Positions 5,098-22,259 of a stretch of DNA of 35,347 bases are shown piece after piece; position 1 is the stretch's first letter, and the number at the start of each line of letters is the position of its first letter. Where the stretch lies: contig JAYUUO010000166.1 in the NCBI GenBank assembly GCA_043754515.1, positions 1 through 35,347 on the forward strand. The letters run 5' to 3'. The notes beneath the pieces were generated by a model that had not been told where the DNA came from, ran no database searches, and saw only the letters and a program-made list of their open reading frames with translations. The DNA is from Armatimonadota bacterium. GTDB taxonomy: Bacteria; Armatimonadota; Armatimonadia; Armatimonadales; Armatimonadaceae. A program made the position numbers and the translations under genes.

Positions 5098-7044
5098 ATG
5101 ACAAGATTTTCTCAGCCACGATACAGCCAGATTCCACTCGCCGCGCTACTCGCCTGCGTGACCGGTGTATCACTCGGTGCCGCCTACGCGCCGTGCCGGG
5201 CGCAGGACGCGATCACGCCCACCAACATCGCGCCACTCCCGACGGCGAGCGACCTGTTCGCGGGCGCGGATAAGCCGGGTCCCTACACGCTCAAGTGGAA
5301 GAAACTGCCGCCATACGCCCTTTTCAAGCCTTCGGTTATAGTTGACGGCAAGACACTTAACGAGTCCGAATACCAGTGGGACGGTGATAAGGGCACGATC
5401 ACGTTCGCCGCGCCGCTTAAAGCCGCCTCCATGGCGCATGTCGTCTACCCCTACGATCCCAAAGGCTCGGAACATAACGACACGCCCGCGTCCTCGCCCG
5501 TGACGGTTCCCCTGGTGAACGCGGGCGGGACGCAATTGCAACTCTCCGCGCTCCCCGGCGCGGCGAAGGGGCATGAGAGCGACACGCTTCTGATCTGGCG
5601 GCTTTCCGGCGCGCCGATGAACGCGTTGGGCGGCAAGGTGACCACGAGCGCGTTGCTCGCGCCGGACACCCGCGCCGACGCCCCGAACGGCTCTGCGCTG
5701 TGGGAGAGGGCGGGGTTCGCGGCGGGCTACCGGATGGGCAGTGACACGAGCGGGCTGGAAGCGAACTTCTCGCGGAGCGGCCGGGACTTCGCGCCGACCC
5801 TGGGTAAAACGTTCGCGATGAGCGATACTGCGTCGCAAACGCTCTCGCTCGCCGCCCGCTACGCCCTCGCCCCCTGGCTACGCGCCGAGTGGAAACAGAC
5901 CGGCACGGATCTCCTCGCCAAAGACGCGGGCACTACCGGGCTAGAAACGATGCTCCTGCGGCTCGGGGGCGCGGGCAACCAGCCGACACTGAACCTGTCG
6001 CGCACGGCGGACGGCCGCACGGACGGTAAGGGTGTTACAAACCGCAAAAGCACCGACCGCATGGAACTGACGGCGAAGATGGGGTCGCAAGTCGCGCTGA
6101 CCGGCAACGCGCAGACCACAAAGTCGGATGTGGACGGCAAGGTCGGCGACAAGACGACCGAGATGGCGATAGCGATCAAGGCACAGAGCACGGACAAGAC
6201 GCAGGCGGCCAGCGTCGCTGTTTCGGGACTCGAAAAGGAAGCGGGCGCGACGAATCAGGCGAACTCCTCGGTCACGGTCACGCTCCAGCCCTCGCCATCC
6301 GTCACCATCGTCGCCGAGCAGAAAAAAGAAGCGTCCACGACCACCGCCGCGACGGGCGACACGCATACCGAGAAGGATCTGGCGTCCGCGGGGGCGAAAA
6401 TCGCGCTCGCGCCCGGTGCCTCGCTCTCCGGTGGCGTGAGCGTGCAGTCGTCGGCGGACACGAAGACGCAAACCGGCGTGCAGGCGACGACACTGTCGGC
6501 AAAGTTCGGCGAGGGCAAGGGGGTCGAAGTCGCGCAGGCACTGGTCAACCGATCCGGGAATATGCCCGGCACGGCGACTCTGAACACGACCGACACCCGC
6601 TTCGCCCTGCGCCCCGTTCGCGGCCTGACGCTCTCCGGTGCCCTGGTCAACAACCCGGAGAAGGACGGCAATATTACGCAGGCGCAACGGCAGGAGATGG
6701 GCCTTTCCGCGCAGGTCGGCGCGCTGAAACTGGGCGGCGGCTACACACTGACCGAGACGGCGGCGCAGAACGGTTTGCAGAAGGGCGAGTTTTCGCTCTC
6801 GCTCGGTCTACGCTTCGATCGGTACACGCAGATGTCGGGCGAGTATAGGGACGGTCTACTGTGGGGGACCACGGAGAGCACGCAGGGCGTCGCGCACGGC
6901 TTGCGCGTGTATACGCTCGGTCTGACGCGCGACATGGGGGCGGCGTTCAACTTCGCGCTGGGCGGAACGATGTCGCAGGACAGGACGCCGGGCGCGACCC
7001 CTTCGGACTACAAAGCGGAAGCGAAACTCGGCGCGAAGTTCTGA
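5098..7044 (+). CDS. Secreted protein, probable outer-membrane beta-barrel with N-terminal Ig-like domain
   Basis: Signal peptide (..PCRA|QD); alternating hydrophobic beta-strand pattern over most of its length; ends YKAEAKLGAKF with terminal Phe. Confidence 0.7.
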   Translation: MTRFSQPRYSQIPLAALLACVTGVSLGAAYAPCRAQDAITPTNIAPLPTASDLFAGADKPGPYTLKWKKLPPYALFKPSVIVDGKTLNESEYQWDGDKGTITFAAPLKAASMAHVVYPYDPKGSEHNDTPASSPVTVPLVNAGGTQLQLSALPGAAKGHESDTLLIWRLSGAPMNALGGKVTTSALLAPDTRADAPNGSALWERAGFAAGYRMGSDTSGLEANFSRSGRDFAPTLGKTFAMSDTASQTLSLAARYALAPWLRAEWKQTGTDLLAKDAGTTGLETMLLRLGGAGNQPTLNLSRTADGRTDGKGVTNRKSTDRMELTAKMGSQVALTGNAQTTKSDVDGKVGDKTTEMAIAIKAQSTDKTQAASVAVSGLEKEAGATNQANSSVTVTLQPSPSVTIVAEQKKEASTTTAATGDTHTEKDLASAGAKIALAPGASLSGGVSVQSSADTKTQTGVQATTLSAKFGEGKGVEVAQALVNRSGNMPGTATLNTTDTRFALRPVRGLTLSGALVNNPEKDGNITQAQRQEMGLSAQVGALKLGGGYTLTETAAQNGLQKGEFSLSLGLRFDRYTQMSGEYRDGLLWGTTESTQGVAHGLRVYTLGLTRDMGAAFNFALGGTMSQDRTPGATPSDYKAEAKLGAKF

Positions 7045-8639: not shown

Positions 8640-10508
8640 ATGAGTAGCAACACTGAGCCTACATGCCACGACCACGCTAGCATAGCGGTGGATGCCAAAC
8701 GCCTTAAGCGGAACACGGTTGGAGCGGTACCCCCGATCGCTTCTTCGCCGCATCAGCTATTTCTGCCGTTGCTCCCGACGCTCCAGGGGGATTCCGCGTC
8801 CTCCTCTGTCAATGATGAACCGTCGCCCGAAACGCGCGGCGCGGTGTTCACGCGACCCTGGGTAGTGCGTCTGCTCCTCGATCTCGCGGGATACGTTCCC
8901 GAGCGGGATCTCGGGTCTCGCGTCGCCGTCGAGCCTGCCGTGGGAGGCGGCGCGTTTCTGACCGAGATGGCACGCCGTCTCGTCACATCCTGCCGCCTCT
9001 TTAGCCGACCCCTCTCCGCTACCGCGCGGTCACTCGTCGCGTATGAGATTGACGCGCGGAGTGCCGAAGAGGTGCGCCGGGCGGTGGCACGCACGTTAAT
9101 GGATGAGGGAGCCGAAGATGGCGAGGCCGAACAACTAGCGTGTGGCTGGGTATTGCGCGAAGATTACCTCTGGGCGGCACCCACCATGAACCCGGTGGAC
9201 TTCGTGATAGGCAATCCCCCGTACGTCCGCCTGGAAAACATTGACCCTGCTACTGCCTCCCTCTACCGCGGTGCTTACCGAACGATGGCCGGGCGTGCCG
9301 ATTTATATGTCGCTTTCTTCGAGGCGGCTCTGCGGTCTCTAAAACCGGATGGCGTTTGCGCGTTCATCTGCGCCGACCGCTGGATGCGCAACCAGTACGG
9401 CGCGGAACTGCGCCGACTGATCACTTCGGGGGCATTCGCGGTAGAAACGGTACTGGAGATGCACGACGCGGATGCGTTCGAGGAGGAGGTGAGTGCCTAC
9501 CCCGCCATCACGGTCATTCGCAGAAGAATCGCCGGATCTGCTCCGTCGCCCGCGCGCACAGCCGTCGCCTGGGCGAGGAGCGGGCTGGAGGATGCCGACC
9601 GCTCCGACCTCGTCCGCGCCCTTTCGGAGGCACCAGATCACACGAGCCGGGTATCATCGCTGACGGTCGCGCATATCTCACCGTGGTTCGCGGGTTCGGA
9701 CCCTTGGCCGCATGTTCCGCCGGATCGTCTGGCACTCCTACGGCGGCTCGAGGCGGCGTTCGAGACGCTCGAATCGGCGGCGATGGGTACCTAGGTCGGT
9801 ATCGGCGTCGCGACCGGGCTGGACCGGGCGTTCATCTCGAGCGACCCGTCGGTGCTCGCGGCAGTCGAACCGGAGTGTCGTCTGCCGCTCGCGCTCGCTT
9901 CGGACGTCAACCGCGATAGCCACCTCCTCGATTGGTCGTGCAATTACCTGATTGATCCCTGGCACGCGGTAGATGAAGGGGACCTCACGTGTCGGTTCCC
10001 CGGCTTGCGCGCTCATCTGGGGCGGTACGAGCCAGGTTTGCGCACCCGACATATCGCGAAGTCTAACCCCGCGCGCTGGTTTCGGACTATAGACCGGGTA
10101 GATCACGCGATTACCGCGCGACGCAAACTGTACCTGCCCGACATAAAGGGGCGGATCACGCCGGTACTTGATGAGGGGAAGACCTATCCTCACCACAACC
10201 TATACGTCGTCACATCTGACACCTGGGACATGGAAGTGCTCGGAGGTCTGCTACTCTCGGACATGGCGCAGTTCTTCGTCGAGTGCTACGCGGTTCGGAT
10301 GCGAGGCGGCTACTTGCGGTTCCAGGCACAATATCTTCGCCGCATCCGCGTGCCACGTCCCCAGGATCTTTCCGCCTGGGAGCGGGAAGAACTAGCCGCC
10401 GCGTTCCGTTGCCGCGATTCAAAACGTGCCACCAGGGCCGCGCTGAACGCCTACGCAATTCGGGAGGATGAGGCACAGCTACTGTGCGAACGGAGCACAC
10501 ATGTCTGA
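8640..10508 (+). pseudogene. Type II N6-adenine DNA methyltransferase (M.XhoI/M.PaeR7I, Eco57I/TaqI-like gamma class) interrupted by an in-frame TAG at 9792-9794
   Basis: ORFs 8640-9794 and 9852-10508 share one frame separated only by TAG; motif X GAVFTR, motif I EPAVGGGAFL, motif IV NPPY, DLYVAF, ICADRW; after the stop VGIGVATG, WFRTIDR, LPDIKG, YPHHNLY, MRGGYLRFQAQYLRRI. Confidence 0.88.
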
Positions 10509-11277
10509 CTCAACAGTCTCGCCTCTCCCGACGCGTGGCGCGGGTCCCGGTCTGATGCCTGACCTTGATGTTCGCTTCGAAGCCGCCATCGCCCACTACT
10601 GGGAAGCGCGCCGCGCGCAGAAGAAAAAGCAGGAGGATGCGGGGACGATTGACACGGGCACGCGTAGCGCGGTGACCGGGAACACGCAGATGGGGGCATT
10701 GGAGGTGCTCGCTTCCGACATTCTGACAGGGGCGGGACTCGAAGGATCTCACGTTCGGATTCGCACGGCGTTGGAGTTGCCCAGCTATTACCGTCCGGAG
10801 AAGAGATGGGATCTTCTGGTTGTTGCGAATAAGACGCTGATATGCGCGGTGGAGTTCAAGTCTCAGGTGGGCCCATCGTTCGGCAATAACTTCAACAATC
10901 GGGTCGAGGAGGCAATCGGTAATGCTACCGATTTATGGACGGCGTTCCGCGAGGGATGGATGGGCACCTCGGCACCACGACCGATTCTTGGATACTTTTT
11001 CCTACTGGAGGACTGTCCCGCCGTCCATACCCCGGTGCGGAACACGGAGCCATTCTTCCCGGTTGACCCGGATCTCAAAGGCGTGTCCTACGCGAAACGG
11101 TACGAAATGTTCTGCCGCCGGTTGGTGTCGGAGCGTTTGTATGATGTGTCGTGCCTGACGCTCTCGAAAGCAACCGCCCCTCATGACGCCCGCTATCCCT
11201 CGCCCGACCTCACGTTCCGCCGGTTCGCCGCCGAACTGGACGCCGCGGCGCGCCGCTTCGTCAGCGGGAGTGGGTGA
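10501..11277 (+). CDS. Type II restriction endonuclease, XhoI/PaeR7I family (predicted site CTCGAG)
   Basis: YRPEKRWDLLV, EFKSQVGPSFGNNFNNRVEEAIG, DLWTAFREG, SYAKRY signatures; overlaps MTase end by 8 nt; GGAG before ATG 10501. Confidence 0.93.
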   Translation: MSDSTVSPLPTRGAGPGLMPDLDVRFEAAIAHYWEARRAQKKKQEDAGTIDTGTRSAVTGNTQMGALEVLASDILTGAGLEGSHVRIRTALELPSYYRPEKRWDLLVVANKTLICAVEFKSQVGPSFGNNFNNRVEEAIGNATDLWTAFREGWMGTSAPRPILGYFFLLEDCPAVHTPVRNTEPFFPVDPDLKGVSYAKRYEMFCRRLVSERLYDVSCLTLSKATAPHDARYPSPDLTFRRFAAELDAAARRFVSGSG

Positions 11278-17888: not shown

Positions 17889-17979
17889 AATGTGGACGGG
17901 GTGCCGGGTGAGGAAACGTCGGAGGGCGGGACGCTAAACGGCGGCATACATGACACGGGGACAGAAGGAGGACGCGGTA

Positions 17980-20289
17980 ATGGCGACCATCAGCAGAAAA
18001 GTCATCCAAGGCAATGTAGCGGCACGCGCCGTCGCGCGTCGCCCTTCCCACGTCCGCGCCTTTTTCCGCGGGGTCGGGGTGTTCCTCGGATTCCTGACCC
18101 TGCTCGGCCTGCTGATCGGGATCGCCGTCGCCGGGTACACCGCCTATCAGGTCCAGGAGGCATCGCGCTTCCTGCCGCAGAACGACAAGCTACTCGACTA
18201 CCAGAAGGGCGGCATTACAACGATCTATGCCACCGATAAAGACCCGAAGACTAGTCAACTAGTCGTGCTGGGGCGCATCTATTCGCAGTATAAAGAATTC
18301 GCGCCCATCACCGAGATGCCGGACATACTGCAAAAGGCGACGATTGCCATTGAGGACGAGCGTTTCTACAAGCACCGTGGCATTGACTTCGAGGCGATAG
18401 CGCGCGCCGTCTACAAAAACATCAAGTCGGGCGAGATGAGCGAAGGGGCGTCCACGCTGACCCAGCAACTGGCGCGTAACGTGTTCCTGACGCAGAAGAA
18501 GACGATGAGCCGCAAACTCCAGGAGATCCTGCTCGCGATCCTGCTGGAGAAAAACTTCTCCAAAGAGCAGATCCTGGAGATGTACCTGAACGAGGTGTGC
18601 TACGGCGTCAATACGTTCGGCGCGAAGGCGGCGGCGAAGGTCTACTTCGGGCGCGACCTCAAGAACCTGTCTCTGTCGCAAGCCGCGCTGATCGCGGGGC
18701 TTCCCCAATCTCCCACCCGACTAGAGCCGTTCCGCCACAAGGACGCCGCCATCAAGCGGCGTAACCTCGTGCTGAAAAAGATGGCCCAACTCGGCTATAT
18801 TACGCCCGAGAAGTGCAAAGAAGCGCAGGGCAACGGCGTGTTCCTGATCTCGGAGCGGCCCTCGATCCGCACCGAAATGAAGGCCCCGTTCTTCACGACG
18901 TACGTGATCCGTCAGCTAAAGAAGGAATACGGCGAGGAGAAGCTGAACACGGGCGGGCTACAGGTGTACACCACGCTCAACTACGCGATGCAGAAAGAGG
19001 CGGAGCGGGCGATCATCAACGGCGTGATGAAGGCGAGTGGCACGGGCGTGACGCAGGGTGCCATCGTGTCGCTTGAACCGCGCACCGGATACGTGCGCGC
19101 GATGGTCGGCGGCGTTGACTTCGGCAAGTACCAATACAACAACGCGGCGCAGGGCGGGCGGCAACCGGGTTCGTCGTTCAAACCGATCGTGTATGTCACC
19201 GCGATGGCACTCCACCCGAACCGGTACGGGCCGGACTCGGAAGTGGACAACTCCCACAAAACTTACGGCAAAGGCTACAGCCCGAACGGCTCGGGACCCT
19301 CCGGCTCGGTGCCGATGCGCACCGCCATCGCCTGGTCATACAACCGCGCGGCGGTAAACACGGCGAACGACATCGGGGTGAGTAATGTTATCGGCACCGC
19401 CCGCAAACTCGGCATCACGTCTGCGCTCGAGCCGAACCTGTCCCTCGCGCTGGGTTCGTACGAGGTGACGCCGCTGGAAATGGCGTCCGCCTACTCGGCG
19501 TTCGCGAACCACGGTAGCCATGCCGCCCCGATGGCGATCATCCGGGTCGTGGATCAGGACGGCGTGATCCTGGCGAATAACCAGCCGCGCGTGAACGCGG
19601 CGATGATCCCCGAGTCGGCGGTCGCTGGGATCGGCTCCGCGCTCCGCGACGTGGTGGAGTACGGCACCGCCGCGAAGGCGGAAGGCATCCATGATGTCAC
19701 CGACGCGCACGGCAAGACGGGCACCACCAACGACAACAAGGACGCGTGGTTCGTCGGCTATACCCCCGAACTCTCCACGGCAGTGTGGGTGTGCGGCTTG
19801 CACTACGTCAAGCGCGGGAAACTACTAGTGCCTGTCTACCAGCGGATGGCGGGCGCGGGCGGCGAGACGACGGGTGGCCATGTCTGCGCGCCGATCTGGG
19901 CGCGGTTTATGAAAGCCGCCGTCCCGATCCAGCGCGCCGCCAAACTGCCGCGCTTGGTGCCCGCGGAGAAGACCGTGAACGTGGGCGACCCCGAAGCGTC
20001 GCCGTCACCTACCCCGCGTCGGCACCGACGGCGTCGCCACGCGGACATATCCCCGGACGCCGAGCCGACGCCTCAGACAAATGCGACCCCGGATGCTAGA
20101 GTTTCAACCCCGACGCCGGAAGCGGTGCCGGAGGTCAAGCCCGACCCGCGGAAAGAGGACGCGAAGCCCGAAACGAAGCCCGCCGACCCGCCGAAAGAAG
20201 AAACGAAACCGGCGGAAAAGCCCGCCGACCCGCCGACGAAGCCCGACGCCCCCGTCGCGCCGGAAACTAAGCACGACGCGCCGCCGTAA
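17980..20289 (+). CDS. Class A penicillin-binding protein (PBP1A family, transglycosylase/transpeptidase)
   Basis: EDERFYKHRG, GASTLTQQL, RKLQE; SSFK, SYN, KTG; N-terminal TM; AAGGAGG SD before ATG 17980. Confidence 0.96.
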   Translation: MATISRKVIQGNVAARAVARRPSHVRAFFRGVGVFLGFLTLLGLLIGIAVAGYTAYQVQEASRFLPQNDKLLDYQKGGITTIYATDKDPKTSQLVVLGRIYSQYKEFAPITEMPDILQKATIAIEDERFYKHRGIDFEAIARAVYKNIKSGEMSEGASTLTQQLARNVFLTQKKTMSRKLQEILLAILLEKNFSKEQILEMYLNEVCYGVNTFGAKAAAKVYFGRDLKNLSLSQAALIAGLPQSPTRLEPFRHKDAAIKRRNLVLKKMAQLGYITPEKCKEAQGNGVFLISERPSIRTEMKAPFFTTYVIRQLKKEYGEEKLNTGGLQVYTTLNYAMQKEAERAIINGVMKASGTGVTQGAIVSLEPRTGYVRAMVGGVDFGKYQYNNAAQGGRQPGSSFKPIVYVTAMALHPNRYGPDSEVDNSHKTYGKGYSPNGSGPSGSVPMRTAIAWSYNRAAVNTANDIGVSNVIGTARKLGITSALEPNLSLALGSYEVTPLEMASAYSAFANHGSHAAPMAIIRVVDQDGVILANNQPRVNAAMIPESAVAGIGSALRDVVEYGTAAKAEGIHDVTDAHGKTGTTNDNKDAWFVGYTPELSTAVWVCGLHYVKRGKLLVPVYQRMAGAGGETTGGHVCAPIWARFMKAAVPIQRAAKLPRLVPAEKTVNVGDPEASPSPTPRRHRRRRHADISPDAEPTPQTNATPDARVSTPTPEAVPEVKPDPRKEDAKPETKPADPPKEETKPAEKPADPPTKPDAPVAPETKHDAPP
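20176..20236 (+). repeat. 19-bp direct repeat encoding KPADPP in the PBP1A tail
   Basis: AAGCCCGCCGACCCGCCGA at 20176-20194 and 20218-20236. Confidence 0.75.
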
Positions 20290-20297
20290 GCAACTGC

Positions 20298-22259
20298 ATG
20301 GGCACGGCGCGACGCGATCACTTTAACGGCTATGCGGGGCGGGCTTCCCTCACGCCTACCGACTCCCCCGAAACGTTCGCGCCTGTCGCGCGGGTGCGCT
20401 GGCTCGTCGCGGTCGTGATGGTGATGCTCGCAGGCCTCGCGGCGCGGCTGTATGTTCTACAGATCATTGGCGGCGAAACGAGCCAGGATAAGGCACGCGC
20501 TAACAGCTCGCGCCTTATCCGCTCTATCGCCCCGCGCGGCATAGTGACCGATTGCGACGGCGTGCCACTAGTCAACAACACCGCGCAGTTCACCGTTTTC
20601 GTTGACCCCGAAGAACTGCCCAAAGACCCGCGCGAGCGCGAGGATGTTCTGGATCGGCTCGCCCCGCTCGTGAACCTGGGCGAGAACGATCTCGACGAAT
20701 TGAAGGATCGGACCGGAACACAGAATACCGCCCGGAATATCAGCGCGAAGCAGGCCCACGCCTCGAAGCATCGCGCGCGCGAGCCGGTCGCTGTGGCCGA
20801 AGGCGTCTCGATGCACGTGCTTTCGGCGATTGACGAGAACGAATGGCATCTCCCTGGCGTAATCAAGTCGGTAGACCCGGTTCGCCGCTACGCCGAACAC
20901 AAACTGGCAGCGCACCTGCTCGGCTACATCGGGCCGGTGACCGAGGACGATCTCAAAGACGAGGGTCTGCGTAAGCGCGGCTACAAGTCGGGCGATTTCA
21001 TTGGTAAGGACGGGGTTGAGAAATCGTACGACGAACTGCTGAACGGTGAAGAAGGCGGTACGCGCTACGAGGTGGACGCGCGGGGTCGGCGCAAGAAGAC
21101 GGTGCTTGACGAGTTCCCGCCCACGGTCGGTGCTACCCTGAAACTGACGCTGGAGCGGCAGGTGCAGGTCGCGGCGGAAAACGCGCTCGCGGGACGCACC
21201 GGCGCGGCGGTCGCGATTGACTCGCGCACGGGCGCGATACTCGCGCTCGCGTCGGCACCGACCTTTGACCCGAACGTGCTGGCGCGCCGCCCGCTACTGG
21301 CGCGGACCTGGAAGGCGATCAACGATCCCAAAACCGCGCCGCTCCTGAACCGCGTGATCAGTGCCGCCGAGCCGCCCGGCTCGACATTCAAGATCGTCAC
21401 CTCCGCCGCCGGGCTGGGGTCGGGCAAACTCAGCCGGTCGGACTCCTTCCTTTGCCGTGGGGGATTGTCGTTCGGACGGACGTTCAAGCGGTGCCACGGC
21501 AATCACGGAAGTGTCAGTCTGGAGCGTGCCCTCGCGCAGTCGTGCGACGTGTACTACTACCAGGTGGGGCGCATAGTGGGGCCGACCGGACTCGCGGACT
21601 GGGCGAGCAAGTTCGGCATCGGCAAGGAGACCGGGATTGACCTGCCGCATGAGTCTACCGGGCGCATGCCGACCCCGGCGTGGAAGGCGAAGATGGCACC
21701 CAAGTTCGGCAACCCGGACACCGGCTGGTACCCCGGCGACACGGCGAATATCGCCATCGGGCAAGGCGACATCATCACGACCCCGCTCCAGATCGCGCAA
21801 CTCTCGGCGGCTATCGCGAACAACGGGGTGCTGTACAAGCCCTACGTCGTGGCGTCCGCGACGAACATCAACCGGGAAGTCGTCTACACCGCGAAGCCGG
21901 AAATCTTCTCCAAACTCCCGCTGACTCAGGGACATGTGACCGAGATCGCGAATGGGATGCGGGCGGTGGTAGTCAGCGGCACCAGTAAGATAGCCGCTAT
22001 TCCCGGAATCGCGGTCGCGGGTAAGTCGGGGACGGCAGAGAAGAAGTCGCGCCGGACGGGGCAGGACACCACGCTAGCCTGGTTTACCTGTTACGCGCCC
22101 TTCGAGAAGCCGGAAATTGCGATCTGTGTTCTGCTCTACTCCGACGCGCACGCGAAGCACTTACACGGCGGCGCGGACGCCGCGCCGATAGCGCGGGCGA
22201 TGATCCAGGCGCATATGGCGCGGCATAAAAAGCCGTTGCTGACGGCGTCGGCGCGGTAA
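20298..22259 (+). CDS. mrdA: Penicillin-binding protein 2 (class B)
   Basis: RLYVLQI, APRG, GKDGVEKSYD, PGSTFK, SCD, KSGTAE motifs. Confidence 0.94.
   Translation: MGTARRDHFNGYAGRASLTPTDSPETFAPVARVRWLVAVVMVMLAGLAARLYVLQIIGGETSQDKARANSSRLIRSIAPRGIVTDCDGVPLVNNTAQFTVFVDPEELPKDPREREDVLDRLAPLVNLGENDLDELKDRTGTQNTARNISAKQAHASKHRAREPVAVAEGVSMHVLSAIDENEWHLPGVIKSVDPVRRYAEHKLAAHLLGYIGPVTEDDLKDEGLRKRGYKSGDFIGKDGVEKSYDELLNGEEGGTRYEVDARGRRKKTVLDEFPPTVGATLKLTLERQVQVAAENALAGRTGAAVAIDSRTGAILALASAPTFDPNVLARRPLLARTWKAINDPKTAPLLNRVISAAEPPGSTFKIVTSAAGLGSGKLSRSDSFLCRGGLSFGRTFKRCHGNHGSVSLERALAQSCDVYYYQVGRIVGPTGLADWASKFGIGKETGIDLPHESTGRMPTPAWKAKMAPKFGNPDTGWYPGDTANIAIGQGDIITTPLQIAQLSAAIANNGVLYKPYVVASATNINREVVYTAKPEIFSKLPLTQGHVTEIANGMRAVVVSGTSKIAAIPGIAVAGKSGTAEKKSRRTGQDTTLAWFTCYAPFEKPEIAICVLLYSDAHAKHLHGGADAAPIARAMIQAHMARHKKPLLTASAR

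Follow-up and report, generated by a model that had tools for sequence, protein, structure and literature searches.

The PaeR7I/XhoI-type restriction-modification (R-M) pair described here has most probably, at roughly 80%, undergone ordinary decay in which the nuclease went first and the methylase followed. In this course of events the nuclease would have been the first to lose selection and would have gathered missense damage, the departures in its sequence being observed and the loss of activity deduced from them. Because the nuclease was damaged earlier the methylase would have become dispensable, and equal branch lengths suggest that it was kept for a while as an orphan. A single A-to-T change would then have turned Lys385 into an amber stop (the codon is observed and the direction of the change is taken from the homologues), and this stop was probably fixed before the sampled strains parted, as judged from P0245, a protein of another strain. 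Release factor 1 (RF1) would terminate at codon 385 and leave a catalytic domain without the recognition domain, so that CTCGAG would be left unmethylated by the truncated enzyme, and the stop probably also lowers, through polarity, the expression of the overlapping downstream nuclease gene. The locus is thus best read as a decayed member of a known R-M family, with a small testable residue around a tRNA-like gene that has a CUA anticodon. The window, that is, the whole stretch of DNA that was analysed, is an entire contig (C166, 35,347 nt) of an assembly of 5.13 Mb that is 92.7% complete and whose named homologues indicate Armatimonadota.

Layout of the locus and the stop at codon 385

The features of the locus are as follows.

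8640 to 9791, + strand: 5' part of the methyltransferase (N6-adenine DNA methyltransferase, catalytic domain, 384 codons; Pfam Eco57I 71 bits, N6_Mtase)
8931 to 8957, + strand: SAM-binding motif I region, residues 98-106, intact in the translation (E98, P99, G102, G104 and F106 invariant)
9213 to 9224, + strand: catalytic motif IV NPPY, residues 192-195, intact (invariant; aligns with M.TaqI and M.BseCI)
9792 to 9794, + strand: premature TAG, codon 385, one base away from AAG (Lys), from the sequence and homologue comparison
9795 to 10508, + strand: 3' part of the methyltransferase (target-recognition domain, 237 codons; Pfam TaqI_C)
10501 to 11277, + strand: endonuclease gene of the PaeR7I/XhoI family with an open frame and erosion at conserved residues (Pfam XhoI, PF04555, 233 bits, cut-off 25)
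10654 to 10683, + strand: A52T, G56S and G61N in a conserved N-terminal nuclease motif, common to the strain protein P0242 (consensus A in 111, G in 117 and G in 118 of 119)
10783 to 10785, + strand: G95S, private to this strain (G in 118/119 homologues)
10810 to 10860, + strand: putative PD-(D/E)XK centre D104, E118 and K120, intact (invariant in 120 sequences; catalytic role judged from the pattern)

The preliminary description of this DNA had the methylase frame split by one amber codon, with more than 230 codons open beyond it, and had the break part the catalytic domain from the target-recognition domain. Both points were borne out, as the frame starts at 8640, is interrupted by the TAG at 9792-9794 and is then open for 237 codons up to the TGA at 10506-10508, with the Eco57I and N6_Mtase domains 5' of the TAG and the TaqI_C domain 3' of it. 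The 5' part is 70-72% identical to the full-length homologues P0122 and P0123, and when the methylase was translated with X at the stop it scored 558 bits on the PADLOC model PDLC03313. The nuclease also matches PADLOC REase_II PDLC03540 (235 bits), and its start, ATG 10501, overlaps the original methylase stop and is preceded 5 nt ahead by GGAG; a promoter and terminator scan found none of either. The locus therefore has an XhoI nuclease and an adjoining upstream N6-adenine methylase which, read with X, has motif I, NPPY and a recognition domain of the TaqI type, and it deviates from the family in that the methylase reading frame is interrupted at codon 385.

Because the third-position GC of the R-M pair is 0.70-0.72 versus 0.78-0.83 in the neighbour genes, because the pair is present in 2 of the 32 family genomes searched, and because a different gene occupies the slot adjoining the FAD oxidoreductase in the congener G002, the pair, which is chromosomal here, is regarded as an acquired cassette that appears from these sequence features to have come in horizontally. 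Most actinobacterial homologues of the methylase (L021-L039) have no XhoI nuclease within 3 kb and are apparent orphans or have other partners. Elsewhere in the window, 17950-22259 holds two tandem penicillin-binding protein genes and 5098-7044 a 648-codon ORF without a Pfam match that does have matches in congeners.

The TAG at 9792-9794 is real. Read-derived contigs were compared for 4 of the 20 listed runs (X1, X3, X5 and X6); those of X5 and X6 have no coverage at 9792, and those of X1 (depth 27) and X3 (depth 9), which were separately assembled, show 0 differences to the window across 9792. The proteins P0124 and P0245 also terminate at the window's residue although they differ from the window elsewhere. 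P0245, compared as a protein, differs from the window at 2 of 111 positions, and it has G330 in common with the glacier run X6, whose listed pieces are about 1% different from the window. What could be said for an assembly or consensus error, which had been offered earlier as one explanation of the stop, is that X1 and X3 are from one study and may be the source samples, that contigs conceal minor alleles, and that one 151-base X3 contig (depth 2.1) has A at 9792; but 10 of 67 letters in that contig differ, which marks it as another organism. In view of the agreement of X1, X3, P0124 and P0245 such an error is hardly credible and is rejected as far as contigs show. A JGI metagenome scan for same-species DNA over the TAG codon returned only relatives of 42-55%.

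The residue at codon 385 is K in 82, R in 25 and Q in 1 of 119 homologous proteins, and a sense codon was found at this position in 47/47 covering loci (26/26 and 21/21, with 1/22 loci lacking coverage). The TAG appears from this comparison to have taken the place of a Lys/Arg codon. The reading K-V-G-I-G-V-A-T-G that had been given for the homologues was confirmed in the protein comparison, and of the two codons proposed as replaced by one substitution Lys holds and Gln, with 1/119, does not.

The position of the break, close to the border between the catalytic and the recognition domains, together with the fact that the three between-strain differences beyond the TAG are all synonymous, would suit a two-chain methylase whose recognition half is translated anew from GTG 9852 and then joins the catalytic half. 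This had also been put forward earlier, and we find it highly improbable. There is no Shine-Dalgarno match upstream of GTG 9852, and a restart there would lose residues 386-404, including the V386-F398 motif, in which V386, G387, I388, G389, V390, A391, G393, D395 and F398 are invariant down to 38% identity. Moreover, none of the 47 covering loci is split at the codon-385 column.

Missense changes in the nuclease and the fate of CTCGAG

The endonuclease frame, described before as open, is indeed open from ATG 10501 to 11277, but the nuclease that it encodes is not intact. It departs from its 119 homologues at 8 of the 117 columns that are at least 90% conserved, the median being 2, and the departures are A52T, G56S, G61N, G95S, R153W, Y185F, F192L and L204F. 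At least 8 departures are reached by 7 of 120 sequences, this nuclease counted. F192L is common to the nuclease and its two closest relatives, and 6 of the departures are common to P0242; after the split G95S and R153W were gained here and L221P and T89P in P0242. G61 is retained in two plasmid homologues of 42-43% identity, G95 is retained in runs X5/X6, in P0242 and in both distant plasmid homologues, and positions 52, 56 and 153 vary in the distant plasmid homologues. A search for a solved structure related to the nuclease found none.

When the nuclease was set beside its closest relatives, 28 private changes were counted here versus 16 in P0004 and 7 in P0003, and the losses at conserved columns were 10 versus 3 and 1, respectively (binomial p 0.004). 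In the methylase of the three matching lineages the private changes were 46 versus 40 versus 46 and the losses at conserved columns were 8 versus 4 versus 5 (p 0.17). The difference between nuclease and methylase on the three lineages, which is an unrooted three-way count, gave a Fisher p of 0.018. This excess in the nuclease beside a balanced methylase, together with a stop that is common to P0245, argues for decay in the order proposed. The changes suggest that the nuclease has been damaged by missense changes and has probably lost activity, which supports the earlier option of a decaying system with a mutated REase. Against plain decay stand the intact D104, E118 and K120, if these are indeed the catalytic residues, and the 6 other homologues that equal this nuclease in departures.

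CTCGAG, the target expected of this pair from its family, occurs 6 times in the window, where such sites had been noted before, and 467 times in the genome, with an observed/expected ratio of 0.19. Many six-base sites are strongly avoided in the genome (GGCGCC 0.08, AGCGCY 0.10, RTCGAY 0.11-0.17, CCCGGG 0.12, TTCGAA 0.16), and this avoidance attests to numerous earlier R-M systems. CTCGGG shows little avoidance (0.82) and there is therefore no sign of a CYCGRG system; a search for the BsoBI/AvaI family gave no match anywhere, the controls being equally without match. A second CTCGAG methylase had been named as something to look for, and no other close copy of this gene was found in the genome, where 3 C5 methylases and several of the N6/N4 type are candidate cover for CTCGAG.

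These observations bear on the possibility that the methylase is dead and the nuclease is still partly active, being tolerated because its expression is low and its cuts are repaired, or because another methylase covers CTCGAG. The intact putative catalytic residues, the GGAG ahead of the nuclease start, the other methylases and the ratio of 0.19 would all agree with it, and according to PMC3488263, cells that have the PaeR7I nuclease gene, unmutated, and not the methylase gene survive. By this report the earlier assertion that an active and unprotected REase should be lethal is weaker than it was stated. Cells do suffer harm on losing PaeR7I plasmids, as described in PMC11324026 and, for PaeR7I loss, in PMC2685091. 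That harm speaks against a tolerated nuclease, as do the lack of a second close methylase copy and of any sign of a CYCGRG system. In addition, 4 of 6 amino-acid changes in the nuclease between strains fall at columns that are at least 80% conserved, where about 3 of 7 would be expected if the changes were neutral. We consider a tolerated, partly active nuclease improbable and decay of the nuclease the better reading.

Stop codons in the genome and the question of read-through

The stops at 1209, 4103 and 34558, cited before as evidence that TAG is a normal stop, are all TAG. In the genome TAG ends 1586 of 4123 called genes that have a stop and is the commonest stop, and prfA (release factor 1) is intact at 470 bits and without a stop, so the earlier judgement that global recoding is unlikely stands. 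The search for pyl genes that had been proposed gave at best 20 bits for PylS against a cut-off of 178, which a control genome passes, and 18.6 bits for PylB against 348, in a genome that is 92.7% complete, and pyrrolysine decoding was rejected on these values.

Of 198 candidate breaks, 26 have an intact paralogue, a few on weak alignments, and these comprise 12 TAG, 11 TGA and 3 TAA. Random point mutation is expected to give 57-58% TAG among new stops and there is thus no excess of TAG among the broken genes. Decay is supported by this absence of recoding machinery of a known kind and by breaks that are made by TAG, TGA and TAA alike. The residues opposite the TAG are not uniform, being K in the methylase, K in UvrB, E in Lon and mostly W or Q in two others. 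A Pfam domain spans the stop in 2 TAG and 4 TGA cases among 40 scanned, one of them borderline. A crude filter for broken genes gave 64 hits (32 TAG, 20 TGA and 12 TAA), which is not a pseudogene count, and on 744 kb from two relatives it gave 9 hits versus 8.9 expected, so that no unusual nonsense load is claimed. Fragments ended by TGA, TAA and TAG recur in Logan and ENA proteins, the TGA and TAA ones at equal length in another strain.

In three apparently single genes, in C23, C118 and C256, TAG is in frame with TGA or TAA (identity by eye except for C23). A TGA-broken amtB copy shows clear decay, and in a prepilin broken by TAG a motif has decayed. A 1071-codon gene at C255:10627-13839, single-copy and shared by 29 of the 31 family genomes, is interrupted by a TAA that is confined to this genome among close orthologues; it has no Pfam match in the scanned part, and with 9 private changes at deep columns versus 10 in G003 its decay is as small as that of uvrB. 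Two TAG-broken genes are without other decay. A TAG interrupts the frame of the sole full-length uvrB at C112:34990, where three congeners have AAG, so that uvrB shows the AAG-to-TAG change proposed for the methylase. Of the two lon genes, the one in C266 is interrupted at 21941 by an in-frame TAG opposite Glu, and its paralogue in C33 is intact. In both broken genes the private changes are conservative only. The TAG-ended fragments of uvrB and lon were matched in NCBI only, but the intact lon control behaved likewise, and the matches listed held no full-length UvrB of near identity. For further TAG genes only relatives of 46-50% were found. Two other methylase genes also look broken, one at C193:25-1308 with an N6 methylase domain and an in-frame TAG, and an N6/N4 methylase at C143:11709-12625 that lies in two frames.

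The search for a tRNA with a CUA anticodon, another check proposed earlier, did return a tRNA-like gene at C138:11927-11999 on the minus strand, which ARAGORN labels tRNA-Pyl. It scores 37.2 bits with the Rfam tRNA model, over the cut-off of 29, has a fold z of -2.33 and has the ordinary cloverleaf layout, but conserved positions are damaged, since there is an A-C mismatch in the anticodon stem and it is the only one of the 77 called tRNAs that lacks the T-loop TTC, purine 37 and pyrimidine 32 together. The gene sits in a prophage-like stretch, with phage-family matches in 9 of 28 proteins scanned, that adjoins a type I-E-like cas operon (so labelled by inspection). Recoding within this prophage-like region was rejected, TAG being a normal stop there that ends 11 of 40 genes. 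No match to the CUA gene was found in 40 relatives, three patterns did not find it in viral contigs, a comparison with annotated phages gave nothing beyond a 29-base chance match, and no close parent was found among the 76 other tRNAs of the genome. Upstream of the CUA gene, and likewise within the prophage-like region, a long near-perfect hairpin lies at L017:12646-12713.

It could be supposed that this prophage-borne tRNA is a leaky amber suppressor that gives some full-length methylase, UvrB and Lon. The gene exists and passes the Rfam cut-off, uvrB and one lon carry a TAG with no other decay, and there are weak signs of constraint in the methylase, at p about 0.01-0.06 and post hoc, that count against plain decay. 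None of the 9-10 differences that separate the strains in the core of the methylase falls at a conserved position (p 0.012-0.056 if neutral, post hoc), and the 3 differences beyond the TAG are all synonymous (p 0.016-0.026, post hoc). Furthermore, TAG-ended fragments differ from their ENA copies at 2 of 327 residues versus 15 of 430 for those ended by TGA or TAA (p 0.011), these being small post hoc counts that take the ENA copies to be those of a single further strain. However, a stop that arose late would leave nearly the same pattern. The suppressor is further opposed by the damaged positions of the tRNA, by its absence from the relatives and viral contigs searched, by the TAG-ended genes of the prophage-like region itself, by the lack of a TAG excess, by the genes in which TAG shares a frame with another stop, by the decayed prepilin and by the TAA-broken gene that has decayed as little as uvrB. 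We hold this suppression to be quite improbable, and still more so the specific form of it in which the odd tRNA is a natural amber suppressor of this Armatimonadota lineage, charged by an ordinary synthetase with no Pyl system, and has allowed AAG-to-TAG changes to become fixed in two genes still under selection, the methylase and the only uvrB.

The preliminary description had also pointed to a GGUCG/CGACC hairpin after the stop as a possible read-through signal. This hairpin folds no better than shuffled sequences (z -0.42, with 60 of 200 shuffles as good) and was rejected as a recoding signal. Of the read-through or recoding option as a whole there thus remains a degenerate CUA tRNA-like gene, and the option is unlikely in the absence of PylS and PylB, with RF1 intact, no TAG excess and a hairpin that is not significant.

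Comparison with known systems

A literature search found no paper on this locus, on this lineage or on residues of the PaeR7I/XhoI family. PF04555 is listed as a PD-(D/E)XK family in PMC3424549. In 1040 genomes, Ershova et al. 2012 (PMC3488263) counted 74 full-length nucleases beside corrupted methylase genes, and the explanations given in that paper are sequencing error, a distant methylase, and a silent or mutated nuclease. The present locus resembles these "solitary" nucleases in that a full-length nuclease adjoins a methylase with a premature stop, and it differs from them in that separate assemblies reject an error and other strains date the nuclease damage. If decay is the true course, the locus would offer a dated example, nuclease and then methylase, for cases of this type that the paper leaves open. 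In that event its main use would be as a caution. ORF calling misses missense decay, and so an uninterrupted nuclease gene next to a broken methylase gene is not necessarily paradoxical. If suppression were true instead, this would be a natural amber suppressor supplied by a prophage and propping up host genes, which would be surprising to specialists.

With pyrrolysine decoding and amber-recoded phages the locus shares an in-frame TAG at a Lys position and a CUA gene that ARAGORN calls tRNA-Pyl; unlike them, it has no PylS or PylB in its genome, the cloverleaf is an ordinary one with damaged positions, and TAG is the commonest stop. M.AquI is a two-chain methylase and a C5 enzyme. Like such two-chain enzymes the methylase here lies in two in-frame pieces that divide catalysis from recognition, whereas it has no ribosome-binding site for the second piece, would lose an invariant motif, and has a split that is not conserved. 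The closest likeness is to the type II R-M systems of the PaeR7I/XhoI kind (PF04555 nuclease with a TaqI-like N6-adenine methylase), with which the pair shares the order of M then R, the overlapping ends and the domain content, at identities to the named plasmid PaeR7I-family members of 42-43% for the nucleases and 38-40% for the methylases. What sets it apart from these systems is that it is chromosomal, that its methylase is cut by TAG at codon 385, and that its nuclease carries G61N, G95S and other changes.
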